Of a DNA stretch of 64,000 nucleotides, positions 476-63,502 are shown one piece after another. Source of the DNA: Eledone cirrhosa. Taxonomy: Eukaryota. Position 1 is the stretch's first letter. Each line of letters begins with the position of its first letter. The stretch is taken from the NCBI GenBank assembly GCA_964016885.1, contig OZ024744.1, positions 130,386,001-130,450,000 of the forward strand, in the 5' to 3' direction. The notes beneath the pieces were generated by a model. It made no database searches. It was not told the origin of the DNA and saw only the letters and a list, made by a program, of their open reading frames with translations. Position numbers and translations under genes: made by a program.

Positions 476-650
476 AACCCCAACTTAACTTAACCCCAAC
501 TTCACTCAACCCCAACGTAACTCAACCCCAACTTAACTTAACCCCAACTTCACTCAACCCCAACTTAACTTAACCCCAACTTCACTCAACCCCAACTTCC
601 AACTTGACTTAACCGCAACTTAACTTAGCCCCAACTTAACTTAAGCCCAA
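476..650 (-). repeat. Inverted satellite block, type A* (175 bp, aaccgcaac variant)
   Basis: C-rich reverse-complement monomers from GGGGTT|AACCCC to AAGCCCAA|AGTCGG; contains cttccaacttgac and ccgc. Confidence 0.95.
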
Positions 651-2267
651 AGTCGGGGTTAAGTTAAGTTGGCGTTAAGTTAAGTTGGCGTTAAGTTAAG
701 TTAGGCTTAACTTAAGTTGGGGTTCAGTTAAGTTGGGGGTAAGTTAAGTTGGGGTTAAGTTAAGTTAGGGTTAAGTTAAGTTGGGGTTGAGTTAAGTTGG
801 GGTTAATTAAGTGGTGGTTATGTTAAGTTGGCGTTAAGTTAAGTTGGGGTTAATTTAAATTGAGGTTAAGTTAACTTTGTGGTTAAGTTAAGTTGGGGTT
901 AAGTTAAGTTGGGGTAAAGTTGGGGTTGAGTTAAGTTGGGGTTGAGTGAAGTTGGGGTTAAGTTAAGTTGGGGTTAAGTTAAGTTGGGGTTAAGATAAGT
1001 CGGGGTTAAGTTAAGTTGTGGTTGAGTTAAGTTGGGGTTAATTTAAGTTGGGGCTAAGTTAATTTGTGGTTAAGTTAAGTTGTGGTTAAGTTAAGTTGGG
1101 GTTAAGTTAAGTTGGGGTTGAGTTAAGTTGGGGCTAAGTTAATTTGGGGTTAAGTTAAGTTGGGGTTAAGTTAAGTTGGGTTTAAGTTAAGTTGGGGTTA
1201 AATTAAGTTGGGGTTAAATTAAGTTGGGGTTAAGTTAAGTTGGGGGTAAGTTAAGTTGGGGGCAAGTTAAGTTGGGGTTAATTTAAGTTGGGGTTAAATT
1301 AAGTTGGGGTTACGTTAAGTTGGTGTTAAGTTAAGTTGGGGTTAATTTAAGTTGGGGTTAATTAAGTTGGGGTTAAGTTAAGTTGGGGTTAAGTTAAGTT
1401 GGGGTTAATTTAAGTTGGGGTTGAGTTAAGTTGGGGTTAAGTTAAGTTGGGGTTATATTAAGTTGGGGTTAAGTTAAGTTGGGGTTCAGTTAAGTTGGGG
1501 TTAAGTTAAGTTGGGGTTAAGTTAAGTTGAGGTTAAGTTAAGTTGGGGTTAAGTTAAGTTGGTGTTAAGTTAAGTTGGGGCTAAGTTAAGTTGGGGCTGA
1601 GTTAAGTTGGGGCTGAGTTAAGTTGGGGTTAAGTTAAGTTGGGGTTAAGTTAAGTCGGGGTTAAGTTAAGTCGGGGTTAAGTTAAGTTAGGGTTCAGTTA
1701 AGTTGGGGTTAAGTTAAGTTGGGGTTGAGTTAAGTTGGGGTTGAGTTAAATTGGGGTTGAGTTAAGTTGGGGTTGAGTTAAGTTGGTGTTGAGTTAAGTT
1801 GGGGTTAAGTTAAGTTGGGGTTAAGTTAAGTTGCAGTTAAGTTAAGTTGAGGTTAAGTTAAGGTGCGGTTAAGTTAAGTTGGGGTTAAGTTAAGTTGGGG
1901 CTAAGTTAAGTTGGGGCTAAGTTAAGTTGGGGCTAAGTTAAGTTGGGGTTAAGTTACGTTGGGGTTAAGTTAAGTCGGGGCTAAGTTAAGTTGGGGTTAA
2001 GTTAAGTTGGGGTTAATTTAAGTTGGGGTTGAGTTAAGTTGGGGTTAAGTTTAGTTGGGGTTAAGTTAAGTTGGGGTTAAGTTAAGTTGGGTTTAAGTTA
2101 AGTTGGGGTTAAGTTAAGTTGGGGTCAAGTTAAGTTGGGGTTAAGTTAAGTTGGTTAGTTAAGTTGAGTTTAAGTTAAGTTGGGGTTAATTTAAGTTGGG
2201 GTTAAGTTAAGTTGGGGTTAAGTTAATTTGGGGTTAAGTTAAGTTGGGGTTAAGTTAAATTGGGGTT

Positions 2268-2451
2268 AACCCCAACTTAACTTAACCCCAACTTCACTCA
2301 ACCCCAACGTAACTCAACCCCAACTTAACTTAACCCCAACTTCACTCAACCCCAACTTAACTTAACCCCAACTTCACTCAACCCCAACTTAAGTCAACCC
2401 CAACTTAACTTAACCCCAACTTGACTTAACCCCAACTTAACTTAAGCCCAA
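2268..2451 (-). repeat. Inverted satellite block, type B (184 bp)
   Basis: Contains aagtcaacc, lacks the ttagcccc monomer, followed by agtcggag. Confidence 0.95.
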
Positions 2452-4234
2452 AGTCGGAGTTAAGTTAAGTTGGCGTTAAGTTAAGTTAGGCTTAACTTAA
2501 GTTGGGGGTAAGTTAAGTTGGGGGTAAGTTAAGTTGGGGTTAAGTTAAGTTGCGGTTAAGTTGGGGTTAAGTTAAGTTAGGGTTAAGTTAAGTTGGCGTT
2601 GAGTTAAGTTGGGGTTAATTAAGTGGTGGTTATGTTAAGTTGGGGTTAATTTAAATTGGGGTGAAGTTAACTTTGTGGTTAAGTTAAGTTGCAGTTAAGT
2701 TAAGTTGAGGTTAAGTTAAGTTGGGGTTAAGTTAAGTTGGGGTTAAGTTAAGTTGGGGCTAAGTTAAGTTGGGGCTAAGTTAAGTTGGGGCTAAGTTAAG
2801 TTGGGGTTAAGTTAAGTTGGGGTTAAGTTAAGTTGGGGTTAAGTTAAGTTGGGGTTAAGTTAAGTTGGTGTTAAGTTAAGTTGGGGCTAAGTTAAGTTGG
2901 GGCTGAGTTAAGTTGGGGCTGAGTTAAGTTGGGATTAAGTTAAGTTGGGGTTGAGTTAAGTTGGGGTTAAGTTAAGTTGGGGTCAAGTTAAGTTGGGGTT
3001 AAGTTGGGGTTAAGTTAAGTTAGGTTTAAGTTAAGTTGGGGTTAAGTTAAGTTGGGGTTAAGTTAAGTTGGGGTTAAGTTAAGTTGGGGTTAAGTTAAGT
3101 TGGGGTTAAGTTAATTTGTGGTTAAGTTAAGTTGGGGTTAAGTTAAGTTGGGGTTAAGTTAAGTCGGGGTTAAGTTAAGTTGGGGTTAAGTTAAGTTGGG
3201 GTTAATTTAAGTTGGGGTTAAGTTAAGTTGGGGATTAAGTTAAGTTGGGGATAATTTAAGTTGGGGTTAAGTTAAGTTTGGGTTTAAGTTAAGTTGGGGT
3301 TAAGTTAAGTTGAGGTTAAGTTAAGTTGGGGTTAAGTTAAGTTGGTTAGTTAAGTTGAGTTTAAGTTAAGTTGGGGTTAATTTAAGTTGGGGTTAAGTTA
3401 AGCTGGGGTTAAGTTAAGTTGGGGTTAAGTTAAGTTGGGGTTAATTTAAGTTGGGGTTAAGTTAAGTTGCGGGTAATTTAAGTTGGGGTTAAGTTAAGTT
3501 GGGGTTAAGTTAAGTTGGGGTTAAGTTAAGTTGGGGTTAAGTTAAGTTGGGGCTAATTTAAGTTGGGGCTGAGTTAAGTTGGGGTTAAGTTAAGTTGGGG
3601 TTAAGTTAAGTTGGGGTTAAGTTAAGTTGGGGTTTATTTAAGTTGGGGTTAAGTTAAGTTGGGGTTCAGTTAAGTTGGGGTTCAGTTAAGTTGGGGTTAA
3701 GATGGGGTTAAATTACGTTGGAGTTAAGTTAAGTTGGGGTTAAGTTAAGTTGGGGTTAAGTTAAGTTGGGGTTAAGTTAAGTCGGGGTTAATTTAAGTCG
3801 GGGTTAAGTTAAGTTAGGGTTCAGTTAAGTTGGGGTTAAGTTAAGTTGGGCTTGAGTTAAGTTGGGGTTGAGTTAAATTGGGGTTGAGTTAAGTTGGGGT
3901 TGAGTTAAGTTGGTGTTGAGTTAAGTTGGGGTTAAGTTAAGTTGGGGTTAAGTTAAGTTGCAGTTAAGTTAAGTTGAGGTTAAGTTAAGGTGCGGTTAAG
4001 TTAAGTTGGGCTTAAGTTAAGTTGGGGCTAAGTTAAGTTGGGGCTAAGTTAAGTTGGGGCTAAGTTAAGTTGGGGTTAAGTTAAGTTGGGGTTAAGTTAA
4101 GTCGGGGTTAAGTTAAGTTGGGGTTAAGTTAAGTTGGGGTTAAGTTAAGTTGGGGTTAAGTTAAGTTGGTTAGTTAAGTTGAGTTTAAGTTAAGTTGGGG
4201 TTAATTTAAGTTGGGGTTAAGTTAAGTTGGGGTT

Positions 4235-4409
4235 AACCCCAACTTAACTTAACCCCAACTTCACTCAACCCCAACGTAACTCAACCCCAACTTAACTTAA
4301 CCCCAACTTCACTCAACCCCAACTTAACTTAACCCCAACTTCACTCAACCCCAACTTCCAACTTGACTTAACCCCAACTTAACTTAGCCCCAACTTAACT
4401 TAAGCCCAA
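4235..4409 (-). repeat. Inverted satellite block, type A
   Basis: cttccaacttgac and ttagcccc diagnostics. Confidence 0.95.
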
Positions 4410-6002
4410 AGTCGGGGTTAAGTTAAGTTGGCGTTAAGTTAAGTTGGCGTTAAGTTAAGTTAGGCTTAACTTAAGTTGGGGTTCAGTTAAGTTGGGGGTA
4501 AGTTAAGTTGGGGTTAAGTTAAGTTAGGGTTAAGTTAAGTTGGGGTTGAGTTAAGTTGGGGTTAATTAAGTGGTGGTTATGTTAAGTTGGGGTTAAGTTA
4601 AGTTGGGGTTAATTTAAATTGGGGTTAAGTTAACTTTGTGGTTAAGTTAAGTTGGGGTTAAGTTAAGTTGGGGTAAAGTTGGGGTTGAGTTAAGTTGGGG
4701 TTGAGTGAAGTTGGGGTTAAGTTAAGTTGGGGTTAAGTTAAGTTGGGGTTAAGATAAGTCGGGGTTAAGTTAAGTTGTGGTTGAGTTAAGTTGGGGTTAA
4801 TTTAAGTTGGGGCTAAGTTAATTTGTGGTTAAGTTAAGTTGTGGTTAAGTTAAGTTGGGGTTAAGTTAAGTTGGGGTTGAGTTAAGTTGGGGCTAAGTTA
4901 ATTTGGGGTTAAGTTAATTTGGGGTTAAGTTAAGTTGGGGTTAAGTTAAGTTGGGTTTAAGTTAAGTTGGGGTTAAATTAAGTTGGGGTTAAATTAAGTT
5001 GGGGTTAAGTTAAGTTGGGGGTAAGTTAAGTTGGGGCTGAGTTAAGTTGGGGTTAAGTTAAGTTGAGGTTAAGTTAAGTTGGGGTTAAATTAAGTTGGGG
5101 TTAAGTTAAGTTGGGGTTAAGTTAAGTTGGGGATAAGTTAAGTTGGGGATAATTTAAGTTGGGGTTAAGTTAAGTTGGGGTTAAGTTAAGTTGGGGTTAA
5201 GTTAAGTTGGGGATAAGTTAAGTTGGGGTTAAGTTAAGTTGGGGTTAAGTTAAGTTGGGGTTAAGTTAAGTTGGGGCTAAGTTAAGTTGGGGCTGAGTTA
5301 AGTTGGGGTTAAGTTAAGTTGGGGGTTAAGTTAAGTTGGGGTAAATTTAAGTTGGGGTTTATTTAAGTTGGGGTTAAGTTAAGTTGGGGTTCAGTTAAGT
5401 TGGGGTTAAGTTAAGTTGGGGTTAAGATGGGGTTAAATTAAGTTGGGGTTAAGTTAAGTTGGGGTTAAGTTAAGTTGGAGTTAAGTTAAGTTGGGGTTAA
5501 GTTAAGTCGGGGTTAAGTTAAGTCGGGGTTAAGTTAAGTTAGGGTTCAGTTAAGTTGGGGTTAAGTTAAGTTGGGGTTGAGTTAAGTTGGGGTTGAGTTA
5601 AATTGGGGTTGAGTTAAGTTGGGGTTAAGTTAAGTTGCAGTTAAGTTAAGTTGAGGTTAAGTTAAGGTGCGGTTAAGTTAAGTTGGGGTTAAGTTAAGTT
5701 GGGGCTAAGTTAAGTTGGGGCTAAGTTAAGTTGGGGTTAAGTTACGTTGGGGTTAAGTTAAGTCGGGGTTAAGTTAAGTTGGGGTTAAGTTAAGTTGGGG
5801 TTAATTTAAGTTGGGGTTAAGTTAAGTTGGGGTTAAGTTAAGTTGGGGTTAAGTTAAGTTGGGGTTAAGTTGGGTTTAAGTTAAGTTGGGGTTAAGTTAA
5901 GTTGGTTAGTTAAGTTGAGTTTAAGTTAAGTTGGGGTTAATTTAAGTTGGGGTTAAGTTAAGTTGGGGTTAAGTTAAGTTGGGGTTAAGTTAAGTTGGGG
6001 TT

Positions 6003-6218
6003 AACCCCAACTTAACTTAACCCCAACTTAACTTAACCCCAACTTCACTCAACCCCAACGTAACTCAACCCCAATTTAACTTAACCCCAACTTCACTCAA
6101 CCCCAACTTAACTTAACCCCAACTTCACTCAATCCCAACTTAAGTCAACCCCAACTTAACTTAACCCCAACTTGACTTAACCCCAACTTAACTTAGCCCC
6201 AACTTAACTTAAGCCCAA
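6003..6218 (-). repeat. Inverted satellite block, type C (216 bp)
   Basis: Extra first monomer, plus caatttaac, caatccc, aagtcaacc and ttagcccc diagnostics. Confidence 0.95.
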
Positions 6219-7490
6219 AGTCGGGGTTAAGTTAAGTTGGCGTTAAGTTAAGTTAGGCTTAACTTAAGTTGGGGGTAAGTTAAGTTGGGGGTAAGTTAAG
6301 TTGGGGTTAAGTTAAGTTGCGGTTAAGTTGGGGTTAAGTTAAGTTAGGGTTAAGTTAAGTTGGCGTTGAGTTAAGTTGGGGTTAATTAAGTGGTGGTTAT
6401 GTTAAGTTGGGGTTAATTTAAATTGGGGTGAAGTTAACTTTGTGGTTAAGTTAAGTTGGGGTTAAGTTAAGTTGGGGTTAAGTTGGGGTTGAGTTAAGTT
6501 GGGGTTGAGTGAAGTTGGGGTTAAGTTAAGTTGGGGTAAAGTTAAGTTGGGGTTAAGTTAAGTCGGGGTTAAGTTAAGTTGTGGTTGAGTTAAGTTGGGG
6601 TTAATTTAAGTTGGGGCTAAGTTAATTTGTGGTTAAGTTAAATTGGGGTTAAGTTAAGTTGGGGTTAAGTTAAGTTGGGGTTAAGTTAAGTTGCAGTTAA
6701 GTTAAGTTGAGGTTAAGTCAAGTTGGGGTTAAGTTAAGTTGGGGTTAAGTTAACTTGGGGTTCAGTTAAGTTGGGGCTAAGTTAAGTTGGGGTTAAGATG
6801 GGGTTAAATTAAGTTGGGGTTAAGTTAAGTTGGGGTTAAGTTAAGTTGGGGTTAAGTTAAGTTGGGGTTAAGTTAAGTCGGGGTTAAGTTAAGTCGGGGT
6901 TAAGTTAAGTTAGGGTTCAGTTAAGTTGGGGTTAAGTTAAGTTGGGGTTGAGTTAAGTTGGGGTTGAGTTAAATTGGGGTTGAGTTAAGTTGGGGTTGAG
7001 TTAAGTTGGTGTTGAGTTAAGTTGGGGTTAAGTTAAGTTGGGGTTAAGTTAAGTTGCAGTTAAGTTAAGTTGAGGTTAAGTTAAGGTGCGGTTAAGTTAA
7101 GTTGGGGTTAAGTTAAGTTGGGGCTAAGTTAAGTTGGGGCTAAGTTAAGTTGGGGCTAAGTTAAGTTGGGGTTAAGTTACGTTGGGGTTAAGTTAAGTCG
7201 GGGCTAAGTTAAGTTGGGGTTAAGTTAAGTTGGGGTTAATTTAAGTTGGGGTTGAGTTAAGTTGGGGTTAAGTTTAGTTGGGGTTAAGTTAAGTTGGGGT
7301 TAAGTTAAGTTGGGTTTAAGTTAAGTTGGGGTTAAGTTAAGTTGGGGTCAAGTTAAGTTGGGGTTAAGTTAAGTTGGTTAGTTAAGTTGAGTTTAAGTTA
7401 AGTTGGGGTTAATTTAAGTTGGGGTTAAGTTAAGGTGGGGTTAAGTTAATTTGGGGTTAAGTTAAGTTGGGGTTAAGTTAAATTGGGGTT

Positions 7491-7674
7491 AACCCCAACT
7501 TAACTTAACCCCAACTTCACTCAACCCCAACGTAACTCAACCCCAACTTAACTTAACCCCAACTTCACTCAACCCCAACTTAACTTAACCCCAACTTCAC
7601 TCAACCCCAACTTAAGTCAACCCCAACTTAACTTAACCCCAACTTGACTTAACCCCAACTTAACTTAAGCCCAA
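7491..7674 (-). repeat. Inverted satellite block, type B
   Basis: aagtcaacc; followed by agtcggag. Confidence 0.95.
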
Positions 7675-10288
7675 AGTCGGAGTTAAGTTAAGTTGGCGTT
7701 AAGTTAAGTTAGGCTTAACTTAAGTTGGGGGTAAGTTAAGTTGGGGGTAAGTTAAGTTGGGGTTAAGTTAAGTTGCGGTTAAGTTGGGGTTAAGTTAAGT
7801 TAGGGTTAAGTTAAGTTGGCGTTGAGTTAAGTTGGGGTTAATTAAGTGGTGGTTATGTTAAGTTGGGGTTAATTTAAATTGGGGTGAAGTTAACTTTGTG
7901 GTTAAGTTAAGTTGCAGTTAAGTTAAGTTGAGGTTAAGTTAAGTTGGGGTTAAGTTAAGTTGGGGCTAAGTTAAGTTGGGGCTAAGTTAAGTTGGGGCTA
8001 AGTTAAGTTGGGGTTAAGTTAAGTTGGGGTTAAGTTAAGTTGGGGTTAAGTTAAGTTGGGGTTAAGTTAAGTTGGTGTTAAGTTAAGTTGGGGCTAAGTT
8101 AAGTTGGGGCTGAGTTAAGTTGGGGCTGAGTTAAGTTGGGATTAAGTTAAGTTGGGGTTGAGTTAAGTTGGGGTTAAGTTAAGTTGGGGTCAAGTTAAGT
8201 TGGGGTTAAGTTGGGGTTAAGTTAAGTTAGGTTTAAGTTAAGTTGGGGTTAAGTTAAGTTGGGGTTAAGTTAAGTTGGGGTTAAGTTAAGTTGGGGTTAA
8301 GTTAAGTTGGGGTTAAGTTAATTTGTGGTTAAGTTAAGTTGGGGTTAAGTTAAGTTGGGGTTAAGTTAAGTCGGGGTTAAGTTAAGTTGGGGTTAAGTTA
8401 AGTTGGGGTTAATTTAAGTTGGGGTTAAGTTAAGTTGGGGATTAAGTTAAGTTGAGGATAATTTAAGTTGGGGTTAAGTTAAGTTTGGGTTTAAGTTAAG
8501 TTGGGGTTAAGTTAAGTTGGGGTTAAGTTAAGTTGGGGTTAAGTTAAGTTGGTTAGTTAAGTTGAGTTTAAGTTAAGTTGGGGTTAATTTAAGTTGGGGT
8601 TAAGTTAAGCTGGGGTTAAGTTAAGTTGGGGTTAAGTTAAGTTGGGGTTAATTTAAGTTGGGGTTAAGTTAAGTTGCGGGTAATTTAAGTTGGGGTTAAG
8701 TTAAGTTGGGGTTAATTTAAGTTGGGGTTAAGTTAAGTTGGGGTTAAGTTAAGTTGGGGTTAAATTAAGTTGGGGCTAATTTAAGTTGGGGCTGAGTTAA
8801 GTTGGGGTTAAGTTAAGTTGGGGTTAAGTTAAGTTGGGGTTAAGTTAAGTTGGGGTTTATTTAAGTTGGGGTTAAGTTAAGTTGGGGTTCAGTTAAGTTG
8901 GGGTTCAGTTAAGTTGGGGTTAAGATGGGGTTAAATTACGTTGGACTTAAGTTAAGTTGGGGTTAAGTTAAGTTGGGGTTAAGTTAAGTTGGGGTTAAGT
9001 TAAGTCGGGGTTAATTTAAGTCGGGGTTAAGTTAAGTTAGGGTTCAGTTAAGTTGGGGTTAAGTTAAGTTGGGCTTGAGTTAAGTTGGGGTTGAGTTAAA
9101 TTGGGGTTGAGTTAAGTTGGGGTTGAGTTAAGTTGGTGTTGAGTTAAGTTGGGGTTAAGTTAAGTTGGGGTTAAGTTAAGTTGGGGTTAAGTTAAGTTGG
9201 GTTTAAGTTAAGTTGGGGTTAAATTAAGTTGGGGTTAAATTAAGTTGGGGTTAAGTTAAGTTGGGGGTAAGTTAAGTTGGGGGCAAGTTAAGTTGGGGTT
9301 AATTTAAGTTGGGGTTAAATTAAGTTGGGGTTACGTTAAGTTGGTGTTAAGTTAAGTTGGGGTTAATTTAAGTTGGGGTTAATTAAGTTGGGGTTAAGTT
9401 AAGTTGGGGTTAAGTTAAGTTGGGGTTAATTTAAGTTGGGGTTGAGTTAAGTTGGGGTTAAGTTAAGTTGGGGTTATATTAAGTTGGGGTTAAGTTAAGT
9501 TGGGGTTCAGTTAAGTTGGGGTTAAGTTAAGTTGGGGTTAAGTTAAGTTGAGGTTAAGTTAAGTTGGGGTTAAGTTAAGTTGGTGTTAAGTTAAGTTGGG
9601 GCTAAGTTAAGTTGGGGCTGAGTTAAGTTGGGGCTGAGTTAAGTTGGGGTTAAGTTAAGTTGGGGTTAAGTTAAGTCGGGGTTAAGTTAAGTCGGGGTTA
9701 AGTTAAGTTAGGGTTCAGTTAAGTTGGGGTTAAGTTAAGTTGGGGTTGAGTTAAGTTGGGGTTGAGTTAAATTGGGGTTGAGTTAAGTTGGGGTTGAGTT
9801 AAGTTGGTGTTGAGTTAAGTTGGGGTTAAGTTAAGTTGGGGTTAAGTTAAGTTGCAGTTAAGTTAAGTTGAGGTTAAGTTAAGGTGCGGTTAAGTTAAGT
9901 TGGGGTTAAGTTAAGTTGGGGCTAAGTTAAGTTGGGGCTAAGTTAAGTTGGGGCTAAGTTAAGTTGGGGTTAAGTTACGTTGGGGTTAAGTTAAGTCGGG
10001 GCTAAGTTAAGTTGGGGTTAAGTTAAGTTGGGGTTAATTTAAGTTGGGGTTGAGTTAAGTTGGGGTTAAGTTTAGTTGAGGTTAAGTTAAGTTGGGGTTA
10101 AGTTAAGTTGGGTTTAAGTTAAGTTGGGGTTAAGTTAAGTTGGGGTCAAGTTAAGTTGGGGTTAAGTTAAGTTGGTTAGTTAAGTTGAGTTTAAGTTAAG
10201 TTGGGGTTAATTTAAGTTGGGGTTAAGTTAAGTTGGGGTTAAGTTAATTTGGGGTTAAGTTAAGTTGGGGTTAAGTTAAATTGGGGTT

Positions 10289-10472
10289 AACCCCAACTTA
10301 ACTTAACCCCAACTTCACTCAACCCCAACGTAACTCAACCCCAACTTAACTTAACCCCAACTTCACTCAACCCCAACTTAACTTAACCCCAACTTCACTC
10401 AACCCCAACTTAAGTCAACCCCAACTTAACTTAACCCCAACTTGACTTAACCCCAACTTAACTTAAGCCCAA
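10289..10472 (-). repeat. Inverted satellite block, type B
   Basis: aagtcaacc; followed by agtcggag. Confidence 0.95.
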
Positions 10473-12271
10473 AGTCGGAGTTAAGTTAAGTTGGCGTTAA
10501 GTTAAGTTAGGCTTAACTTAAGTTGGGGGTAAGTTAAGTTGGGGGTAAGTTAAGTTGGGGTTAAGTTAAGTTGCGGTTAAGTTGGGGTTAAGTTAAGTTA
10601 GGGTTAAGTTAAGTTGGCGTTGAGTTAAGTTGGGGTTAATTAAGTGGTGGTTATGTTAAGTTGGGGTTAATTTAAATTGGGGTGAAGTTAACTTTGTGGT
10701 TAAGTTAAGTTGCAGTTAAGTTAAGTTGAGGTTAAGTTAAGTTGGGGTTAAGTTAAGTTGGGGTTAAGTTAAGTTGGGGCTAAGTTAAGTTGGGGCTAAG
10801 TTAAGTTGGGGCTAAGTTAAGTTGGGGTTAAGTTAAGTTGGGGTTAAGTTAAGTTGGGGTTAAGTTAAGTTGGGGTTAAGTTAAGTTGGTGTTAAGTTAA
10901 GTTGGGGCTAAGTTAAGTTGGGGCTGAGTTAAGTTGGGGCTGAGTTAAGTTGGGATTAAGTTAAGTTGGGGTTGAGTTAAGTTGGGGTTAAGTTAAGTTG
11001 GGGTCAAGTTAAGTTGGGGTTAAGTTGGGGTTAAGTTAAGTTAGGTTTAAGTTAAGTTGGGGTTAAGTTAAGTTGGGGTTAAGTTAAGTTGGGGTTAAGT
11101 TAAGTTGGGGTTAAGTTAAGTTGGGGTTAAGTTAATTTGTGGTTAAGTTAAGTTGGGGTTAAGTTAAGTTGGGGTTAAGTTAAGTCGGGGTTAAGTTAAG
11201 TTGGGGTTAAGTTAAGTTGGGGTTAATTTAAGTTGGGGTTAAGTTAAGTTGGGGATTAAGTTAAGTTGGGGATAATTTAAGTTGGGGTTAAGTTAAGTTT
11301 GGGTTTAAGTTAAGTTGGGGTTAAGTTAAGTTGAGGTTAAGTTAAGTTGGGGTTAAGTTAAGTTGGTTAGTTAAGTTGAGTTTAAGTTAAGTTGGGGTTA
11401 ATTTAAGTTGGGGTTAAGTTAAGCTGGGGTTAAGTTAAGTTGGGGTTAAGTTAAGTTGGGGTTAATTTAAGTTGGGGTTAAGTTAAGTTGCGGGTAATTT
11501 AAGTTGGGGTTAAGTTAAGTTGGGGTTAAGTTAAGTTGGGGTTAAGTTAAGTTGGGGTTAAGTTAAGTTGGGGTTAAGTTAAGTTGGGGCTAATTTAAGT
11601 TGGGGCTGAGTTAAGTTGGGGTTAAGTTAAGTTGGGGTTAAGTTAAGTTGGGGTTAAGTTAAGTTGGGGTTTATTTAAGTTGGGGTTAAGTTAAGTTGGG
11701 GTTCAGTTAAGTTGGGGTTCAGTTAAGTTGGGGTTAAGATGGGGTTAAATTACGTTGGAGTTAAGTTAAGTTGGGGTTAAGTTAAGTTGGGGTTAAGTTA
11801 AGTTGGGGTTAAGTTAAGTCGGGGTTAATTTAAGTCGGGGTTAAGTTAAGTTAGGGTTCAGTTAAGTTGGGGTTAAGTTAAGTTGGGCTTGAGTTAAGTT
11901 GGGGTTGAGTTAAATTGGGGTTGAGTTAAGTTGGGGTTGAGTTAAGTTGGTGTTGAGTTAAGTTGGGGTTAAGTTAAGTTGGGGTTAAGTTAAGTTGCAG
12001 TTAAGTTAAGTTGAGGTTAAGTTAAGGTGCGGTTAAGTTAAGTTGGGCTTAAGTTAAGTTGGGGCTAAGTTAAGTTGGGGCTAAGTTAAGTTGGGGCTAA
12101 GTTAAGTTGGGGTTAAGTTAAGTTGGGGTTAAGTTAAGTCGGGGTTAAGTTAAGTTGGGGTTAAGTTAAGTTGGGGTTAAGTTAAGTTGGGGTTAAGTTA
12201 AGTTGGTTAGTTAAGTTGAGTTTAAGTTAAGTTGGGGTTAATTTAAGTTGGGGTTAAGTTAAGTTGGGGTT

Positions 12272-12446
12272 AACCCCAACTTAACTTAACCCCAACTTCA
12301 CTCAACCCCAACGTAACTCAACCCCAACTTAACTTAACCCCAACTTCACTCAACCCCAACTTAACTTAACCCCAACTTCACTCAACCCCAACTTCCAACT
12401 TGACTTAACCCCAACTTAACTTAGCCCCAACTTAACTTAAGCCCAA
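12272..12446 (-). repeat. Inverted satellite block, type A
   Basis: cttccaacttgac diagnostic. Confidence 0.95.
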
Positions 12447-53053: not shown

Positions 53054-53228
53054 AACCCCAACTTAACTTAACCCCAACTTCACTCAACCCCAACGTAACT
53101 CAACCCCAACTTAACTTAACCCCAACTTCACTCAACCCCAACTTAACTTAACCCCAACTTCACTCAACCCCAACTTCCAACTTGACTTAACCCCAACTTA
53201 ACTTAGCCCCAACTTAACTTAAGCCCAA
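53054..53228 (-). repeat. Inverted satellite block, type A
   Basis: cttccaacttgac diagnostic. Confidence 0.95.
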
Positions 53229-53688
53229 AGTCGGGGTTAAGTTAAGTTGGCGTTAAGTTAAGTTGGCGTTAAGTTAAGTTAGGCTTAACTTAAGTTGGGG
53301 TTCAGTTAAGTTGGGGGTAAGTTAAGTTGGGGTTAAGTTAAGTTAGGGTTAAGTTAAGTTGGGGTTGAGTTAAGTTGGGGTTAATTAAGTGGTGGTTATG
53401 TTAAGTTGGGGTTAAGTTAAGTTGGGGTTAATTTAAATTGGGGTTAAGTTAACTTTGTGGTTAAGTTAAGTTGGGGTTAAGTTAAGTTGGGGTAAAGTTG
53501 GGGTTGAGTTAAGTTGGGGTTGAGTGAAGTTGGGGTTAAGTTAAGTTGGGGTTAAGTTAAGTTGGGGTTAAGATAAGTCGGGGTTAAGTTAAGTTGTGGT
53601 TGAGTTAAGTTGGGGTTAATTTAAGTTGGGGCTAAGTTAATTTGTGGTTAAGTTAAGTTGTGGTTAAGTTAAGTTGGGGTTAAGTTAA

Positions 53689-56600
53689 GTTGGGGTTGAG
53701 TTAAGTTGGGGCTAAGTTAATTTGGGGTTAAGTTAAGTTGGGGTTAAGTTAAGTTGGGTTTAAGTTAAGTTGGGGTTAAATTAAGTTGGGGTTAAATTAA
53801 GTTGGGGTTAAGTTAAGTTGGGGGTAAGTTAAGTTGGGGGCAAGTTAAGTTGGGGTTAATTTAAGTTGGGGTTAAATTAAGTTGGGGTTACGTTAAGTTG
53901 GTGTTAAGTTAAGTTGGGGTTAATTTAAGTTGGGGTTAATTAAGTTGGGGTTAAGTTAAGTTGGGGTTAAGTTAAGTTGGGGTTAATTTAAGTTGGGGTT
54001 GAGTTAAGTTGGGGTTAAGTTAAGTTGGGGTTATATTAAGTTGGGGTTAAGTTAAGTTGGGGTTCAGTTAAGTTGGGGTTAAGTTAAGTCGGGGTTAAGT
54101 TAAGTTGAGGTTAAGTTAAGTTGGGGTTAAGTTAAGTTGGTGTTAAGTTAAGTTGGGGCTAAGTTAAGTTGGGGCTGAGTTAAGTTGGGGCTGAGTTAAG
54201 TTGGGGCTAAGTTAAGTTGGGGTTGAGTTAAGTTGGGGTTAAGTTGGGGTTAAGTTAAGTTAGGTTTAAGTTAAGTTGGGGTTAAGTTAAGTTGGGGTTA
54301 AGTTAAGTTGGGGTTAAGTTAAGTTGGGGTTAAGTTAAGTTGGGGTTAAGTTAAGTTGGGGTTAAGTTAATTTGTGGTTAAGTTAAGTTGTGGTTAAGTT
54401 AAGTTGGGGTTAAGTTAAGTTGGGGTTAAGTTAAGTCGGGGTTAAGTTAAGTTGGGGTTAAGTTAAGTTGGGGTTAATTTAAGTTGGGGTTAAGTTAAGT
54501 TGGGGTTAAGTTAAGTTGGGGTTAAGTTAAGTCGGGGTTAAGTTAAGTTGGGGTTAAGTTAAGTTGGGGTTAATTTAAGTTGGGGTTAAGTTAAGTTGGG
54601 GTTAAGTTAAGTTGGGGTTAAGTTAAGTTGGGGTTAAGTTAAGTTGGGGATAATTTAAGTTGGGGTTAAGTTAAGTTTGAGTTTAAGTTAAGTTGGGGTT
54701 AAGTTAAGTTGGGGTTAAGTTAAGTTGGGGTTAAGTTAAGTTGGTTAGTTAAGTTGAGTTTAAGTTAAGTTGGGGTTAATTTAAGTTGGGGTTAAGTTAA
54801 GCTGGGGTTAAGTTAAGTTGGGGTTAAGTCAAGTTGGGGTTAATTTAAGTTGGGGTTAAGTTAAGTTGCGGGTAATTTAAGTTGGGGTTAAGTTACGTTG
54901 GGGTTAAGTTAAGTTGGGGTTAAGTTAAGTTGGGGTTAAGTTAAGTTGGGGCTAATTTAAGTTGGGGCTGAGTTAAGTTGGGGTTAAGTTAAGTTGGGGT
55001 TAAGTTAAGTTGGGGTTAAGTTAAGTTGGGGTTTATTTAAGTTGGGGTTAAGTTAAGTTGGGGTTCAGTTAAGTTGGGGTTCAGTTAAGTTGGGGTTAAG
55101 TTAAGTTGGGGTTAAGATGGGGTTAAATTACGTCGGAGTTAAGTTAAGTTGGGGTTAAGTTAAGTTGGGGTTAAGTTAAGTTGGGGTTAAGTTAAGTCGG
55201 GGTTAATTTAAGTCGGGGTTAAGTTAAGTTAGGGTTCAGTTAAGTTGGGGTTAAGTTAAGTTGGGGTTGAGTTAAGTTGGGGTTGAGTTAAATTGGGGTT
55301 GAGTTAAGTTGGGGTTGAGTTAAGTTGGTGTTGAGTTAAGTTGGGGTTAAGTTAAATTGGGGTTAAGTTAAGTTGCAGTTAAGTTAAGTTGAGGTTAAGT
55401 TAAGGTGCGGTTAAGTTAAGTTGGGCTTAAGTTAAGTTGGGGCTAAGTTAAGTTGGGGCTCAGTTAAGTTGGGGCTAAGTTAAGTTGGGGTTAAGTTAAG
55501 TTGGGGTTAATTTAAGTTGGGGTTAAGTTAAGTTGGGGTTAAGTTAAGTTGGGGTTAAGTTAAGTTGGGTTTAAGTTAAGTTGGGGTTAAGTTATGTTGG
55601 GGTTGAGTTAAGTTGGGGCTGAGTTAATTTGGGGTTAAGTTAAGTTGGGGTTAAGTTAAGTTGGGTTTAAGTTAAGTTGGGGTTAAATTAAGTTGGGGTT
55701 AAAATAAGTTGGGGTTAAGTTAAGTTGGGGGTAAGTTAAGTTGGGGGCAAGTTAAGTTGGGGTTAATTTAAGTTGGGGTTAAATTAAGTTGGGGTTACGT
55801 TAAGTTGGTGTTAAGTTAAGTTGGGGTTAATTTAAGTTGGGGTTAATTAAGTTGGGGTTAAGTTAAGTTGGGGTTAAGTTAAGTTGGGGTTAATTTAAGT
55901 TGGGGTTGAGTTAAGTTGGGGTTAAGTTAAGTTGGGGTTATATTAAGTTGGGGTTAAGTTAAGTTGGGGTTAATTTAAGTTGGGGTTAAGTTAAGTTGGG
56001 GTTAAGTTAAGTTGGTGTTAAGTTAAGTTTGGGCTAAGTTAAGTTGGGGTTGAGTTAAGTTGGGGTTAAGTTGGGGTTAAATTAAGTTAGGTTTAAGTTA
56101 AGTTGGGGTTAAGTTAAGTTGGGGTTAAGTTAAGTTGTGGTTAAGTTAAGTTGGGGTTAAGTTAAGTTGGGGTTAAGTTAAGTCGGGGTTGAGTTAAGTT
56201 GGGGTTAAGTTAAGTTGGGGTTAATTTAAGTTGGGGTTAAGTTAAGTTGGGGTTAAGTTAAGTTGGGGTTAAGTTAATTGGGGTTAAGTTAAGTTGGGGT
56301 TAAGTTAAGTTGAGGTTAAGTTAAGTTGGGGTTAAGTTAAGTTGGGGTTGAGTTAAGTTGGGGCTAAGTTAATTTGGGGTTAAGTTAAGTTGGGGTTAAG
56401 TTAAGTTGGGTTTAAGTTAAGTTGGGGTTAAATTAAGTTGGGGTTAAATTAAGTTGGGGTTAAGTTAAGTTGGGGGTAAGTTAAGTTGGGGGCAAGTTAA
56501 GTTGGGGTTAATTTAAGTTGGGGTTAAATTAAGTTGGGGTTACGTTAAGTTGGTGTTAAGTTAAGTTGGGGTTAATTTAAGTTGGGGTTAATTAAGTTGG

Positions 56601-58987
56601 GGTTAAGTTAAGTTGGGGTTAAGTTAAGTTGGGGTTAATTTAAGTTGGGGTTGAGTTAAGTTGGGGTTAAGTTAAGTTGGGGTTATATTAAGTTGGGGTT
56701 AAGTTAAGTTGGGGTTCAGTTAAGTTGGGGTTAAGTTAAGTCGGGGTTAAGTTAAGTTGAGGTTAAGTTAAGTTGGGGTTAAGTTAAGTTGGTGTTAAGT
56801 TAAGTTGGGGCTAAGTTAAGTTGGGGCTGAGTTAAGTTGGGGCTGAGTTAAGTTGGGGCTAAGTTAAGTTGGGGTTGAGTTAAGTTGGGGTTAAGTTGGG
56901 GTTAAGTTAAGTTAGGTTTAAGTTAATTTGGGGTTAAGTTAAGTTGGGGTTAAGTTAAGTTGGGGTTAAGTTAAGTTGGGGTTAAGTTAAGTTGGGGTTA
57001 AGTTAAGTTGGGGTTAAGTTAATTTGTGGTTAAGTTAAGTTGTGGTTAAGTTAAGTTGGGGTTAAGTTAAGTTGGGGTTAAGTTAAGTCGGGGTTAAGTT
57101 AAGTTGGGGTTAAGTTAAGTTGGGGTTAATTTAAGTTGGGGTTAAGTTAAGTTGGGGTTAAGTTAAGTTGGGGTTAAGTTAAGTCGGGGTTAAGTTAAGT
57201 TGGGGTTAAGTTAAGTTGGGGTTAATTTAAGTTGGGGTTAAGTTAAGTTGGGGTTAAGTTAAGTTGGGGTTAAGTTAAGTTGGGGTTAAGTTAAGTTGGG
57301 GATAATTTAAGTTGGGGTTAAGTTAAGTTTGAGTTTAAGTTAAGTTGGGGTTAAGTTAAGTTGGGGTTAAGTTAAGTTGGGGTTAAGTTAAGTTGGTTAG
57401 TTAAGTTGAGTTTAAGTTAAGTTGGGGTTAATTTAAGTTGGGGTTAAGTTAAGCTGGGGTTAAGTTAAGTTGGGGTTAAGTCAAGTTGGGGTTAATTTAA
57501 GTTGGGGTTAAGTTAAGTTGCGGGTAATTTAAGTTGGGGTTAAGTTAAGTTGGGGTTAAGTTAAGTTGGGGTTAAGTTAAGTTGGGGTTAAGTTAAGTTG
57601 GGGCTAATTTAAGTTGGGGCTGAGTTAAGTTGGGGTTAAGTTAAGTTGGGGTTAAGTTAAGTTGGGGTTAAGTTAAGTTGGGGTTTATTTAAGTTGGGGT
57701 TAAGTTAAGTTGGGGTTCAGTTAAGTTGGGGTTCAGTTAAGTTGGGGTTAAGTTAAGTTGGGGTTAAGATGGGGTTAAATTACGTCGGAGTTAAGTTAAG
57801 TTGGGGTTAAGTTAAGTTGGGGTTAAGTTAAGTTGGGGTTAAGTTAAGTCGGGGTTAATTTAAGTCGGGGTTAAGTTAAGTTAGGGTTCAGTTAAGTTGG
57901 GGTTAAGTTAAGTTGGGGTTGAGTTAAGTTGGGGTTGAGTTAAATTGGGGTTGAGTTAAGTTGGGGTTGAGTTAAGTTGGTGTTGAGTTAAGTTGGGGTT
58001 AAGTTAAATTGGGGTTAAGTTAAGTTGCAGTTAAGTTAAGTTGAGGTTAAGTTAAGGTGCGGTTAAGTTAAGTTGGGCTTAAGTTAAGTTGGGGCTAAGT
58101 TAAGTTGGGGCTCAGTTAAGTTGGGGCTAAGTTAAGTTGGGGTTAAGTTAAGTTGGGGTTAATTTAAGTTGGGGTTAAGTTAAGTTGGGGTTAAGTTAAG
58201 TTGGGGTTAAGTTAAGTTGGGTTTAAGTTAAGTTGGGGTTAAGTTATGTTGGGGTTGAGTTAAGTTGGGGCTGAGTTAATTTGGGGTTAAGTTAAGTTGG
58301 GGTTAAGTTAAGTTGGGTTTAAGTTAAGTTGGGGTTAAATTAAGTTGGGGTTAAAATAAGTTGGGGTTAAGTTAAGTTGGGGGTAAGTTAAGTTGGGGGC
58401 AAGTTAAGTTGGGGTTAATTTAAGTTGGGGTTAAATTAAGTTGGGGTTACGTTAAGTTGGTGTTAAGTTAAGTTGGGGTTAATTTAAGTTGGGGTTAATT
58501 AAGTTGGGGTTAAGTTAAGTTGGGGTTAAGTTAAGTTGGGGTTAATTTAAGTTGGGGTTGAGTTAAGTTGGGGTTAAGTTAAGTTGGGGTTATATTAAGT
58601 TGGGGTTAAGTTAAGTTGGGGTTAATTTAAGTTGGGGTTAAGTTAAGTTGGGGTTAAGTTAAGTTGGTGTTAAGTTAAGTTTGGGCTAAGTTAAGTTGGG
58701 GTTGAGTTAAGTTGGGGTTAAGTTGGGGTTAAATTAAGTTAGGTTTAAGTTAAGTTGGGGTTAAGTTAAGTTGGGGTTAAGTTAAGTTGTGGTTAAGTTA
58801 AGTTGGGGTTAAGTTAAGTTGGGGTTAAGTTAAGTCGGGGTTGAGTTAAGTTGGGGTTAAGTTAAGTTGGGGTTAATTTAAGTTGGGGTTAAGTTAAGTT
58901 GGGGTTAAGTTAAGTTGGGGTTAAGTTAATTGGGGTTAAGTTAAGTTGGGGTTAAGTTAAGTTGAGGTTAAGTTAAGTTGGGGTTAA
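53689..58987 (+). repeat. 2652-bp tandem duplication with no inverted block, junction near 56335
   Basis: tacgtcggag at 55129/57781 and aaaataag at 55701/58353, both at offset 2652. Confidence 0.88.
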
Positions 58988-59654
58988 ATTAAGTTTGGGT
59001 TAAGTTAAGTTGGGGTTAAGTTAAGTTGGGGATAAGTTAAGTTGGGGATAATTTAAGTTGGGGTTAAGTTAAGTTGGGTTTAAGTTAAGTTGGAGTTAAG
59101 TTAAGTTGGGGTTAAGTTAAGTTGGGGTTAAGTTAAGTTGGGGTTAAGTTAAGTTGGGGCTAAGTTAAGTTGGGGCTGAGTTAAGTTGGGGTTAAGTTAA
59201 GTTGGGGTTAAGTTAAGTTGGGGTTAAGTTAAGTTGGGGTTAATTTAAGTTGGGGTTAAGTTAAGTTGCGGGTAATTTAAGTTGGGGTTAAGTTAAGTTG
59301 GGGTTAAGTTAAGTTGGGGTTAAGTTAAGTTGGGGTTAAGTTAAGTTGGGGTTAAGTTAAGTTGGGGCTGAGTTAAGTTGGGGTTAAGTTAAGTTGGGGT
59401 TAAGTTAAGTTGGGGTTAAGTTAAGTTGGGGTTTATTTAAGTTGGGGTTAAGTTAAGTTGGGGTTCAGTTAAGTTGCAGTTAAGTCAAGTTGAGGTTAAG
59501 TTAAGGTGCGGTTAAGTTAAGTTGGGGTTAATTTAAGTTGGGGTTAAGTTAAGTTGGGGTTAAGTTAAGTTGGTTAGTTAAGTTGAGTTTAAGTTAAGTT
59601 GGGGTTAATTTAAGTTGGGGTTAAGTTAAGTTGGGGTTAAGTTAAGTTGGGGTT

Positions 59655-59829
59655 AACCCCAACTTAACTTAACCCCAACTTCACTCAACCCCAACGTAAC
59701 TCAACCCCAACTTAACTTAACCCCAACTTCACTCAACCCCAACTTAACTTAACCCCAACTTCACTCAACCCCAACTTCCAACTTGACTTAACCCCAACTT
59801 AACTTAGCCCCAACTTAACTTAAGCCCAA
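59655..59829 (-). repeat. Inverted satellite block, type A' (subfamily 2)
   Basis: cttccaacttgac; triple ttgggggtaag tail. Confidence 0.95.
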
Positions 59830-62800
59830 AGTCGGGGTTAAGTTAAGTTGGCGTTAAGTTAAGTTGGCGTTAAGTTAAGTTAGGCTTAACTTAAGTTGGG
59901 GTTCAGTTAAGTTGGGGGTAAGTTAAGTTGGGGGTAAGTTAAGTTGGGGGTAAGTTAAGTTGGGGTTAAGTTAAGTTGCGGTTAAGTTGGGGTTAAGTTA
60001 AGTTAGGGTTAAGTTAAGTTGGGGTTGAGTTAAGTTGGGGTTAATTAAGTGGTGGTTATGTTAAGTTGGGGTTAAGTTAAGTTGAGGTTAATTTAAATTG
60101 GGGTTAAGTTAACTTTGTGGTTAAGTTAAGTTGGGGTTAAATTAAGTTGGGGTAAAGTTGGGGTTGAGTTAAGTTGGGGTTGAGTGAAGTTGGGGTTAAG
60201 TTAAGTTGGGGTTAAGTTAAGTTGGGGTTAAGATAAGTCGGGGTTAAGTTAAGTTGTGGTTGAGTTAACTTGGGGTTAATTTAAGTTGGGGCTAAGTTAA
60301 TTTGTGGTTAAGTTAAGTTGGGGTTAAGTTAAGTTGGGGTTAAGTTAAGTTGGGGTTGAGTTAAGTTGGGGTTGAGTTAATTTGGGGTTAAGTTAAGTTG
60401 GGGTTAAGTTAAGTTGGGTTTAAGTTAAGTTGGGGTTAAATTAAGTTGGGGTTAAATTAAGTTGGGGTTAAGTTAAGTTGGGGGTAAGTTAAGTTGGGGG
60501 CAAGTTAAGTTGGGGTTAATGTAAGTTGGGGTTAAATTAAGTTGGGGTTACGTTAAGTTGGTGTTAAGTTAAGTTGGGGTTAATTTAAGTTGGGGTTAAT
60601 TAAGTTGGGGTTAAGTTAAGTTGGGGTTAAGTTAAGTTGGGGTTAATTTAAGTTGGGGTTGAGTTAAGTTGGGGTTAAGTTAAGTTGGGGTTATATTAAG
60701 TTGGGGTTAAGTTAAGTTGGGGTTCAGTTAAGTTGGGGTTAAGTTAAGTTGGGGTTAAGTTAAGTTGGGGCTAAGTTAAGTTGGGGCTGAGTTAAGTTGG
60801 GGCTGAGTTAAGTTGGGGCTAAGTTAAGTTGGTGTTGAGTTAAGTTGGGGTTAAGTTGGGGTTAAGTTAAGTTAGGTTTAAGTTAAGTTGGGGTTAAGTT
60901 AAGTTGGGGTTACGTTAAGTTGGGGTTAAGTTAAGTTGGGCTTAAGTTAAGTTGGGGTTAAGTTAATTTGTGGTTAAGTTAAGTTGTGGTTAAGTTAAGT
61001 TGGGGTTAATTTAAGTTGGGCTTAAGTTAAGTCGGGGTTAAGTTAAGTTGGGGTTAAGTTAAGTTGGGGTTAATTTAAGTTGGGGTTAAGTTAAGTTGGG
61101 GTTATGTTAAGTTGGGTTTAAGTTAAGTTGGGGTTAAGTTAAGTTGAGGTTAAGTTAAGTTGGGGTTAAATTAAGTTGGGGTTAAGTTAAGTTGGGGTTA
61201 AGTTAAGTTGGGGTTAAGTTAAGTTGGGGATAAGTTAAGTTGGGGATAATTTAAGTTGGGGTTAAGTTAAGTTGGGTTTAAGTTAAGTTGGGTTTAAGTT
61301 AAGTTGGGGTTAAGTTAAGTTGGGGTTAAGTTAAGTTGGGGTTAAGTTAAGTTGGGGCTAAGTTAAGTTGGGGCTGAGTTAAGTTGGGGTTAAGTTAAAT
61401 TGGGGTTAAGTTAAGTTGGGGTTAAGTTAAGTTGGGGTTAAGTTAAGTTGGGGTTTATTTAAGTTGGGGTTAAGTTAAGTTGGGGTTCAGTTAAGTTGGG
61501 GTTCAGTTAAATGGGGTTAAGTTAAGTTGGGGTTAAGATGGGGTTAAATTAAGTTGGGGTTAAGTTAAGTTGGGGTTAAGTTAAGTTGGGGTTAAGCTAA
61601 GTTGGGGTTAAGTTAAGTCGGGGTTAAGTTAAGTCGGGGTTAAGTTAAGTTAGGGTTCAGTTAAGTTGGGGTTAAGTTAAGTTGGGGTTGAGTTAAGTTG
61701 GGGTTGAGTTAAGTTGGGGTTAAGTTAAGTTGGGGTTAAGTTAAGTTGCAGTTAAGTTAAGTTGAGGTTAAGTTAAGGTGCGGTTAAGTTAAGTTGGGCT
61801 TAAGTTAAGTTGGGGCTAAGTTAAGTTGGGGCTCAGTTAAGTTGGGGCTAAGTTAAGTTGGGGTTAAGTTAAGTTGGGGTTAATTTAAGTTGGGGTTAAG
61901 TTAAGTTGGGGTTAAGTTAAGTTGGGGTTAAGTTAAGTTGGGTTTAAGTTAAGTTGGGGTTAAGTTATGTTGGGGTTGAGTTAAGTTGGGGCTGAGTTAA
62001 TTTGGGGTTAAGTTAAGTTGGGGTTAAGTTAAGTTGGGTTTAAGTTAAGTTGGGGTTAAATTAAGTTGGGGTTAAAATAAGTTGGGGTTAAGTTAAGTTG
62101 GGGGTAAGTTAAGTTGGGGGCAAGTTAAGTTGGGGTTAATTTAAGTTGGGGTTAAATTAAGTTGGGGTTACGTTAAGTTGGTGTTAAGTTAAGTTGGGGT
62201 TAATTTAAGTTGGGGTTAATTAAGTTGGGGTTAAGTTAAGTTGGGGTTAAGTTAAGTTGGGGTTAATTTAAGTTGGGGTTGAGTTAAGTTGGGGTTAAGT
62301 TAAGTTGGGGTTATATTAAGTTGGGGTTAAGTTAAGTTGGGGTTAATTTAAGTTGGGGTTAAGTTAAGTTGGGGTTAAGTTAAGTTGGTGTTAAGTTAAG
62401 TTTGGGCTAAGTTAAGTTGGGGTTGAGTTAAGTTGGGGTTAAGTTGGGGTTAAATTAAGTTAGGTTTAAGTTAAGTTGGGGTTAAGTTAAGTTGGGGTTA
62501 AGTTAAGTTGTGGTTAAGTTAAGTTGGGGTTAAGTTAAGTTGGGGTTAAGTTAAGTCGGGGTTGAGTTAAGTTGGGGTTAAGTTAAGTTGGGGTTAATTT
62601 AAGTTGGGGTTAAGTTAAGTTGGGGTTAAGTTAAGTTGGGGTTAAGTTAATTGGGGTTAAGTTAAGTTGGGGTTAAGTTAAGTTGAGGTTAAGTTAAGTT
62701 GGGGTTAAATTAAGTTTGGGTTAAGTTAAGTTGGGGTTAAGTTAAGTTGGGGATAAGTTAAGTTGGGGATAATTTAAGTTGGGGTTAAGTTAAGTTGGGT

Positions 62801-63327
62801 TTAAGTTAAGTTGGGGTTAAGTTAAGTTGGGGTTAAGTTAAGTTGGGGTTAAGTTAAGTTGGGGTTAAGTTAAGTTGGGGCTAAGTTAAGTTGGGGCTGA
62901 GTTAAGTTGGGGTTAAGTTAAGTTGGGGTTAAGTTAAGTTGGGGTTAAGTTAAGTTGGGGTTAATTTAAGTTGGGGTTAAGTTAAGTTGCGGGTAATTTA
63001 AGTTGGGGTTAAGTTAAGTTGGGGTTAAGTTAAGTTGGGGTTAAGTTAAGTTGGGGTTAAGTTAAGTTGGGGTTAAGTTAAGTTGGGGTTTATTTAAGTT
63101 GGGGTTAAGTTAAGTTGGGGTTCAGTTAAGTTGCAGTTAAGTCAAGTTGAGGTTAAGTTAAGGTGCGGTTAAGTTAAGTTGGGGTTAATTTAAGTTGGGG
63201 TTAAGTTAAGTTGGGGTTAAGTTAAGTTGGTTAGTTAAGTTGAGTTTAAGTTAAGTTGGGGTTAATTTAAGTTGGGGTTAAGTTAAGTTGGGGTTAAGTT
63301 AAGTTGGGGTTAAGTTAAGTTGGAGTT

Positions 63328-63502
63328 AACCCCAACTTAACTTAACCCCAACTTCACTCAACCCCAACGTAACTCAACCCCAACTTAACTTAACCCCAAC
63401 TTCACTCAACCCCAACTTAACTTAACCCCAACTTCACTCAACCCCAACTTCCAACTTGACTTAACCCCAACTTAACTTAGCCCCAACTTAACTTAAGCCC
63501 AA
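63328..63502 (-). repeat. Inverted satellite block, type A' with mutated junction GGAGTT|AACCCC
   Basis: G>A at 63324 breaks the junction palindrome; triple ttgggggtaag tail. Confidence 0.93.

Follow-up and report, generated by a model that had tools for sequence, protein, structure and literature searches.

An amplified micro-inversion in a subterminal 16-bp satellite array of Eledone cirrhosa, probably a product of ordinary repeat evolution

The satellite array near one end of Eledone cirrhosa chromosome C28 carries short blocks of reverse orientation that recur in hundreds of copies with nearly identical junctions. These blocks are most likely neutral passengers, likely born in one double template switch at tiny microhomologies and likely copied to ~800 places by array duplications and deletions. 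We therefore see in them the outcome of ordinary repeat evolution, and probably not a landmark with a function. Here we describe the blocks and their junctions, outline how they may have arisen and spread, and compare them with published satellite inversions.

The satellite array and its chromosomal setting

The window, i.e., the whole 64-kb stretch of DNA analysed, corresponds to 130.386–130.450 Mb of C28, a 136.5-Mb chromosome in a 3.0-Gb genome. It consists throughout of a single 16-bp satellite with the consensus GTTAAGTTGGGGTTAA (4,025 copies, 87% match), each monomer of which contains two TTAA palindromes, and it represents the densest part of the array. According to the loci sampled, the array spans ~126.97 to ~135.35 Mb and occupies a subterminal position. 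The higher-order unit comprises ~80–125 forward monomers plus one inverted block and measures ~1.3–2 kb. Monomer-string comparison revealed that the forward spacers of the window are monomer strings repeated between units, and thus a repeating multi-monomer unit is present. Since the spacers themselves are repeated strings, the block forms one component of a loosely defined higher-order unit. In the main texts of the literature searched, none of six rotations of the monomer was found.

The same monomer also forms arrays on C3 and C18 and contributes to a composite repeat on C2. At 184.74–185.11 Mb on C3, in the middle of the chromosome, the 16-mer array adjoins a long block of telomere-type repeats, and the samples from this region are devoid of inverted blocks; such an adjacency would be expected at a site of end-to-end fusion. 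The composite repeat on C2 (209.2–209.75 Mb, in the middle of the 416-Mb chromosome) has a unit of 376–472 bp, which combines 16-mers with DNA ~81% like the palindromic part of a macro-repeat at C28 124.69–125.91 Mb. This macro-repeat was found in five samples over ~1.2 Mb and harbours degenerate rRNA-like pieces (the 28S 3' end according to Rfam), a match to the histone 3' stem-loop, ~14 16-mer copies and long palindromes in its interior. It may represent an rDNA-spacer-like source of the 16-bp satellite. Other satellites on the C28 arm, with units of 420, 64, 69 and 30 bp, are located at 110.0, 120.0, 136.1 and 136.496 Mb.

Inverted blocks within the window

Thirty-two reverse-orientation blocks, 30 full-length and two truncated, make up 8.7% of the window DNA. 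They comprise 14 A-type blocks of 171 bp (ten A, three A* and one with a single change), 11 B blocks of 180 bp, five C-type blocks of 212 bp (one with a small change) and the two truncated blocks of 51 bp. An earlier sequence-only reading of the window had given their order as A* B A C B B A C B and so forth, which we reproduced exactly. The start-to-start distances quoted there were likewise recovered (1967 bp five times, 1488 bp four times, 1792 and 1983 bp three times each, 1768 bp twice). The type A', which had been set apart, is identical to A inside the block and differs only in the flanking monomers. The features of the window are as follows (positions within the window):

1..64000, plus strand: 16-bp satellite, consensus GTTAAGTTGGGGTTAA, belonging to the ~8.4-Mb array
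470..481, unstranded: example of the left (head-to-head) junction, perfectly palindromic around a 4-base TTAA microhomology
478..648, minus strand: inverted block A* (171 bp)
644..660, unstranded: example of the right (tail-to-tail) junction, where the monomers meet out of register and overlap by 1 base; lineage marker shared by the whole block family
2270..2449, minus strand: inverted block B (180 bp)
4237..4407, minus strand: inverted block A
6005..6216, minus strand: inverted block C (212 bp)
7493..7672, minus strand: inverted block B
10291..10470, minus strand: inverted block B
12274..12444, minus strand: inverted block A
14042..14253, minus strand: inverted block C
15530..15709, minus strand: inverted block B
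17497..17667, minus strand: inverted block A
19252..19431, minus strand: inverted block B
21235..21405, minus strand: inverted block A*
23027..23206, minus strand: inverted block B
25111..25290, minus strand: inverted block B
27251..27421, minus strand: inverted block A with one change
28880..29091, minus strand: inverted block C
30288..30467, minus strand: inverted block B
32255..32305, minus strand: truncated block whose new right junction has a 2-base overlap, first of two copies of a single event
32493..32663, minus strand: inverted block A
33009..33220, minus strand: inverted block C, 345 bp after the preceding block, the spacer lost by an in-register deletion
34497..34676, minus strand: inverted block B
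36464..36514, minus strand: truncated block, second copy
36702..36872, minus strand: inverted block A
40683..40853, minus strand: inverted block A
44144..44314, minus strand: inverted block A*
45936..46115, minus strand: inverted block B
47919..48089, minus strand: inverted block A
49601..49812, minus strand: inverted block C with a small change
51089..51268, minus strand: inverted block B
53056..53226, minus strand: inverted block A
53227..59656, plus strand: 6.4-kb forward spacer with a tandem duplication of a block-free unit part
59657..59827, minus strand: inverted block A
63330..63500, minus strand: inverted block A carrying one change in its left junction

The junctions turned out slightly less uniform than the sequence-only reading had it. 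The exact 12 bases of the left junction are shared by 31 of the 32 blocks, the last block showing one change, and its palindrome has perfect 27-bp arms in most copies. The right junction, described as common to the 30 full-length blocks, occurs as two alleles, one in 19 A and C blocks and the other in 11 B blocks. Similarly, a near-regular spacing of 1.5–2 kb had been reported: 23 of the 31 intervals in the window indeed fall between 1.2 and 2.3 kb, but the full range extends from 238 to 6601 bp.

A probable single origin on C28

The C28 junctions are identical by descent across copies. A gap-free stretch of 664 kb (no N) harbours 178 blocks, 175 of which carry the ancestral right junction (changed in two of these), and the remaining three are truncations from two events. 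Elsewhere on C28 this junction, usually followed by a common marker monomer, recurs in diverged forms at 124.6, 131.3–131.7, 132.0–132.8, 133 and 134.8 Mb. In the genome-wide count that had been proposed as a check, the right-junction pattern matched 841 times and the left palindrome 774 times, corresponding to ~800 blocks; among the matches listed (100 of the 841 and 100 of the 774), all are on C28 and none on C1–C27. A 41-base junction pattern produced 395 exact matches in the genome, compared to 0 for the reversed control, which is far more than chance would give. Since ~800 blocks have one right junction in common, a single inversion was likely amplified. The earlier proposal that one ancestral inversion was built into the higher-order unit and then amplified is supported by a right junction and a flanking marker that are common across the array.

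Some candidate observations were set aside. A looser pattern over-counts at 131.2–131.8 Mb (10 hits versus 6 blocks in one locus), and its total of 384 was not used. The 41-base pattern has 56 minus-strand matches, many of which are whole blocks within reverse-oriented stretches; only three copies read at the monomer level were counted as flips (see below). Megabase "inversions" at 132.8–133.3 and 124.6 Mb adjoin scaffold gaps, and hence the orientation there was not used as evidence.

Palindromic junctions are a known long-read artefact, and scaffold gaps interrupt the assembly at 124.69, 131.987 and 132.79 Mb. The blocks might accordingly be fold-back chimeras of assembly or reads, but we regard this as extremely unlikely. 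Absence of the junction from amplification-free raw reads had been named by the sequence-only reading as evidence against its own proposal. A 68-base short-read contig, possibly from the assembled animal, crosses the right junction with zero differences at a word depth of 1,464. The block is therefore real in DNA and not an assembly artefact. Moreover, the blocks contain heritable subtype variants that are tied to the flanks, and the 664-kb stretch is free of N. Reduced-representation reads from other animals are less telling. All reads over a diagnostic base (10 of 10 and 11 of 11) are without the block allele and mostly fit the plain satellite; since these libraries sample little of the array, this is no evidence of absence. 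Further such runs contain 4–6 reads per run at least 99% alike to the junction, and in the runs of three other animals it is not clear that reads span it. Another organism's run yielded plain satellite only, and one further run nothing.

Probable birth of the block by template switching

The C28 switch points lie at short microhomologies, the 4-base TTAA on the left and the 1-base overlap on the right, and the conserved inversion sites are free of foreign DNA. A second inversion informs on how such blocks arise. A search for the in-register tail-to-tail palindrome returned four places, three of them on C18, where the same 16-bp satellite carries a distinct inverted block of 148 bp in three copies (10,129,100–10,189,000). 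This block has TTAA at both ends, its centre is the other TTAA of the monomer, and its junction is unlike that on C28. Within 80 kb, two private markers are confined to the DNA just upstream of this block and, as mirror images, to its interior (one in three of three copies, the other upstream in two of three). Accordingly, the block is a reverse-complement copy of nearby sequence, as is the case for the flips on C28. The markers do not recur downstream, and therefore a full triplication is not present. The C18 block is independent and young and repeats adjacent DNA in inverted orientation, a structure that points to template switching.

For the C28 block a forward source was also sought; the full segment was not found, and single block markers do occur in forward orientation. 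In view of this result, we infer from the C18 example that the C28 block, too, would have been born by template switching. A clean in-place inversion was rejected as its origin, as turning the block back gives out-of-register joints in the sequence.

Related events have been described in other contexts. In the four-point model of short-range template switching, the DNA made between two switch points is the reverse complement of a nearby sequence (PMC7954356), and inverted products also result from ODIRA (inverted triplications; PMC10766186) and from fold-back (inverted duplications; PMC3907307). As far as the portions of these reports drawn on here go, the events resemble ours in their short-homology switch points and inverted repeat product, and they fit the C18 block and the flips. 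They differ in being single events in mostly unique DNA, whereas the product described here is amplified in tandem and the C18 block lacks the full triplication.

Our preferred mechanism would proceed as follows. Owing to the two TTAA palindromes in each monomer, a stalled strand could prime on the opposite strand, and a double template switch at tiny microhomologies would then have created a short inverted block once. From then on, direct-repeat recombination would copy or delete the junction pair only together, and the interior would change by whole monomers. Ordinary duplications and deletions of the array would have spread the block to ~800 sites, and the 1.5–2 kb rhythm would be the local unit length and nothing more.

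Spacing, length and conservation of the blocks

The sequence-only reading had suggested that the block, retained at near-regular spacing, may be a structural landmark. Over 664 kb the blocks are spaced at a median of 2,330 bp (range 238–35,718 bp). As controls we used 168 point-variant markers of similar copy number, which are not independent of each other and from which the block and its linked right flank were left out. Over 603 kb the coefficient of variation (CV) of block spacing is 1.26, compared to a control median of 1.24. The CV is equal or lower in 55% of the controls, the largest gap equal or smaller in 77%, and the middle half equal or tighter in 19%. Within the window the picture is mixed: the CV of 68% of 44 controls does not exceed that of the blocks, yet only one of the 44 has a tighter middle half. 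In three gaps of 25–36 kb the other unit markers are kept and the block is absent.

Neither sequence nor length is measurably constrained. Private variants in the blocks amount to 11–14 events in 31.7 kb (0.35–0.44 per kb), compared to 0.24–0.32 per kb in forward DNA beyond 200 bp and 0.18–0.24 per kb in the nearest flank; they are not rarer in blocks than in flanks up to 1 kb (p 0.18–0.26). Related blocks range in length from ~150 to 520 bp, and the nucleosome-like size is thus a local coincidence. The density of blocks varies from 0 to 8 per 10 kb among related unit families. From 124.69 to 130.247 Mb, a region that covers 3.3 Mb of array, no junction was found among the matches listed. Blocks were absent from nine of nine samples at 127.0–130.1 Mb, from six of six at 133.45–134.4 Mb and from seven of seven on C3 (one of which lies outside the array).

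A toy model without selection serves as a reference for these values. It allows in-register duplications and deletions between like-oriented monomers only, its parameters were not fitted, and it was run 40 times in each of four settings; of the 160 runs, the 147 that ended with at least 10 blocks were scored (13 fell below). Both junctions stay paired in 147 of 147 scored runs, an outcome that follows from the rule of the model, since direct-repeat recombination is unable to separate them. Four of the observed values, namely copy number, median, CV and largest gap, lie within the neutral 5–95% range in most settings. The spread of the middle half, observed at 0.99 array-wide and 0.35 in the window, is close to the 5% tail. 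The sequence-only reading had named neutral unequal crossover as the competing explanation of the spacing; the model mostly covers the observed values. With regard to the junctions, the model suggests that their identity alone needs no selection, as direct-repeat recombination only copies or deletes both jointly.

A retained landmark, be it a protein loading site, a nucleosome-sized boundary or centromere-seeding non-B DNA, would account for the window spacing, which is tight around the unit length, and for junctions that are near-identical over hundreds of copies. The setting may also be pericentromeric, given the subterminal array and the telomere-type repeats beside the GTTAAGTTGGGGTTAA monomer in mid-C3, and a hypothesis of this kind was raised, in the available text, by the authors of the Tribolium studies discussed below for their own inversion sites. 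We nevertheless judge this role very unlikely. Regular spacing is not supported, given a CV close to that of the controls and the block-free gaps; there is no excess conservation, the lengths and densities vary widely among related units, and neither the C3 samples nor 3.3 Mb of the C28 array contain the block. In addition, identical junctions are expected without selection under the neutral model. A constraint on sequence, length or spacing was not found, with the tight middle half in the window as the one statistic pointing the opposite way.

The neutral-passenger interpretation, which we favour, also has findings against it. The middle half of the spacing is tighter than in 43 of 44 controls in the window and tighter than in 81% of the controls array-wide, with a spread near the 5% tail of the neutral model. 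Most unit families between 130.25 and 135.35 Mb contain the block lineage. The forward source of the C28 block, which was not found, and the joints of block-like inverted DNA to another satellite at the distal array end and at 124.6 Mb likewise count against it.

Rearrangements at the blocks

The palindrome occasionally rearranges. Four of 334 blocks examined have block-type monomers in the left flank: one of them is an in-register deletion in the window, and the other three copies derive from two independent events. In these three copies (C28 130,478,271, 130,512,966 and 130,570,326) block-specific monomers are found on the forward strand, moved across the palindrome centre. One of the two rare events is compatible with a flip of the central segment, and the other with a double switch accompanied by loss. 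The screen covers two marker monomers only, within 70 bp. The predicted hairpins are stable, with -24 to -28 kcal/mol for the 27-bp arms and -46 to -59 kcal/mol for 120 bases, compared to -5 to -11 kcal/mol for forward-only 120-mers. A mismatch 8 bp from the centre persists uncorrected in 13 copies.

Several other joints were noted in and around the array. At C28 131,964,576 the array switches without a gap to a reverse-oriented array of at least 22 kb; the switch is not at a block and is not a fold-back of the adjacent 200 bases. The reverse-oriented array beyond it holds an A-type block with its own junction variant. At the distal end of the array (C28 135.348 Mb) and at an orphan block (124.599 Mb), block-like inverted DNA borders a degenerate 32-bp satellite similar to a 16-mer dimer, and the two joints differ. 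The block may have been picked up from a former edge of the array, or blocks may be places where joints arise. An AT-rich satellite of ~37 bp, which includes an 18-bp palindrome, alternates with the 16-mer in pieces of 0.7–6.7 kb at C28 132.01–132.79 and 124.63–124.64 Mb, and at one type of its junctions an inverted block has its left part replaced.

The block had been proposed to drive array turnover, and two flip events among 334 blocks lend this notion weak support. In a stronger form, the block would drive its own spread: an extruded hairpin or cruciform would stall forks or be cut, and the ensuing repair events would expand block-bearing units. Compatible with such a drive are the stable predicted hairpins, the two independent flips with their three copies, the two joints to the 32-bp satellite and the one to the AT-rich satellite within block-like DNA, and a lineage that covers ~5 Mb. 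Flips are rare, however, as are truncations (two events, three copies, among 178 blocks), the mismatches 8 bp off centre are left uncorrected, and the one large gap-free switch (131.9646 Mb) is not at a block. Furthermore, the C18 block reached only three copies, and 3.3 Mb of array expanded without any block. That the array amplifies without the block also follows from the tandemly duplicated block-free unit part at 53227..59656 of the window. On balance, drive by the block is unlikely. The same low probability applies to its extension, a selfish micro-inversion in which breakage and repair at a hairpin-forming block would have given its unit dominance over ~5 Mb of pericentromeric array and would seed joints to neighbouring satellites.

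Comparison with known satellite inversions

The label of an undescribed system is too strong for the blocks, as conserved and amplified inversion sites in satellites have already been published; a literature phrase search on an amplified inversion gave no match. The closest counterparts are the macro-dyad symmetries of Tribolium, i.e., TmSat1/TmSat2 of T. madens (PMC13081366) and TfSat01 of T. freemani (PMC12581902). In the text of these studies available to us, orientation switches take place at a small number of highly conserved junction types, each present in hundreds to thousands of copies, and the authors state that the function is untested and that preservation could reflect the mode of repeat spread (PMC13081366, PMC12581902). 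Going by these accounts, the C28 array shares with Tribolium few conserved junction types in many copies, a junction without foreign DNA and the potential to form hairpins. Unlike C28, the inverted subarrays of Tribolium are described there as kilobases long, roughly symmetric and present on most or all chromosomes. On C28 the inverted part measures 150–520 bp between kilobase-long forward runs, makes up ~9% of the DNA, is traced to one origin on one chromosome and is absent from megabases of the same array. Kilobase-long, roughly symmetric inverted subarrays were not found among the C28 blocks, nor does the same inversion type occur on several chromosomes among the matches listed (all C28), the C18 junction being different. 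The amplified mini-inversion works like the published conserved inversion sites and fails the macro-dyad definition on size, symmetry and spread.

Two further systems bear comparison, again as far as the consulted portions of the sources go. Complex monomers composed of inverted subunits are known from the 1061-bp satellite of T. brevicornis, MAD2 of T. madens and TAUD2 of T. audax (PMC12581902). These likewise contain an inverted subunit inside an amplified unit; they are reported as fixed and homogenised, in contrast to the loose higher-order repeat of 16-mers described here, whose inverted part is still gained and lost. The human HSat3B5 (chromosome 9) and beta-satellite arrays harbour more than 200 inversion breakpoints (10.1101/2021.07.12.452052) and thus resemble C28 as satellite arrays with hundreds of strand switches. 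In the text available, the human breakpoints are not traced to one short amplified block, whereas on C28 there are ~1,600 switches if the ~800 blocks count twice.

Conclusions

Satellite inversion sites that are conserved are currently taken as indications of function, such as hairpin formation or centromere seeding. For this view the C28 array constitutes a natural control, in which hundreds of identical junctions lie beside megabases without any, and no constraint is measurable. The second, independent birth of an inversion on C18, which stalled at three copies, adds to the value of this control. The block is also a usable lineage tag for the history of the array. If a chromatin signal were found at the junctions, comparison with the adjoining block-free domain would allow a direct test of the non-B DNA hypothesis.
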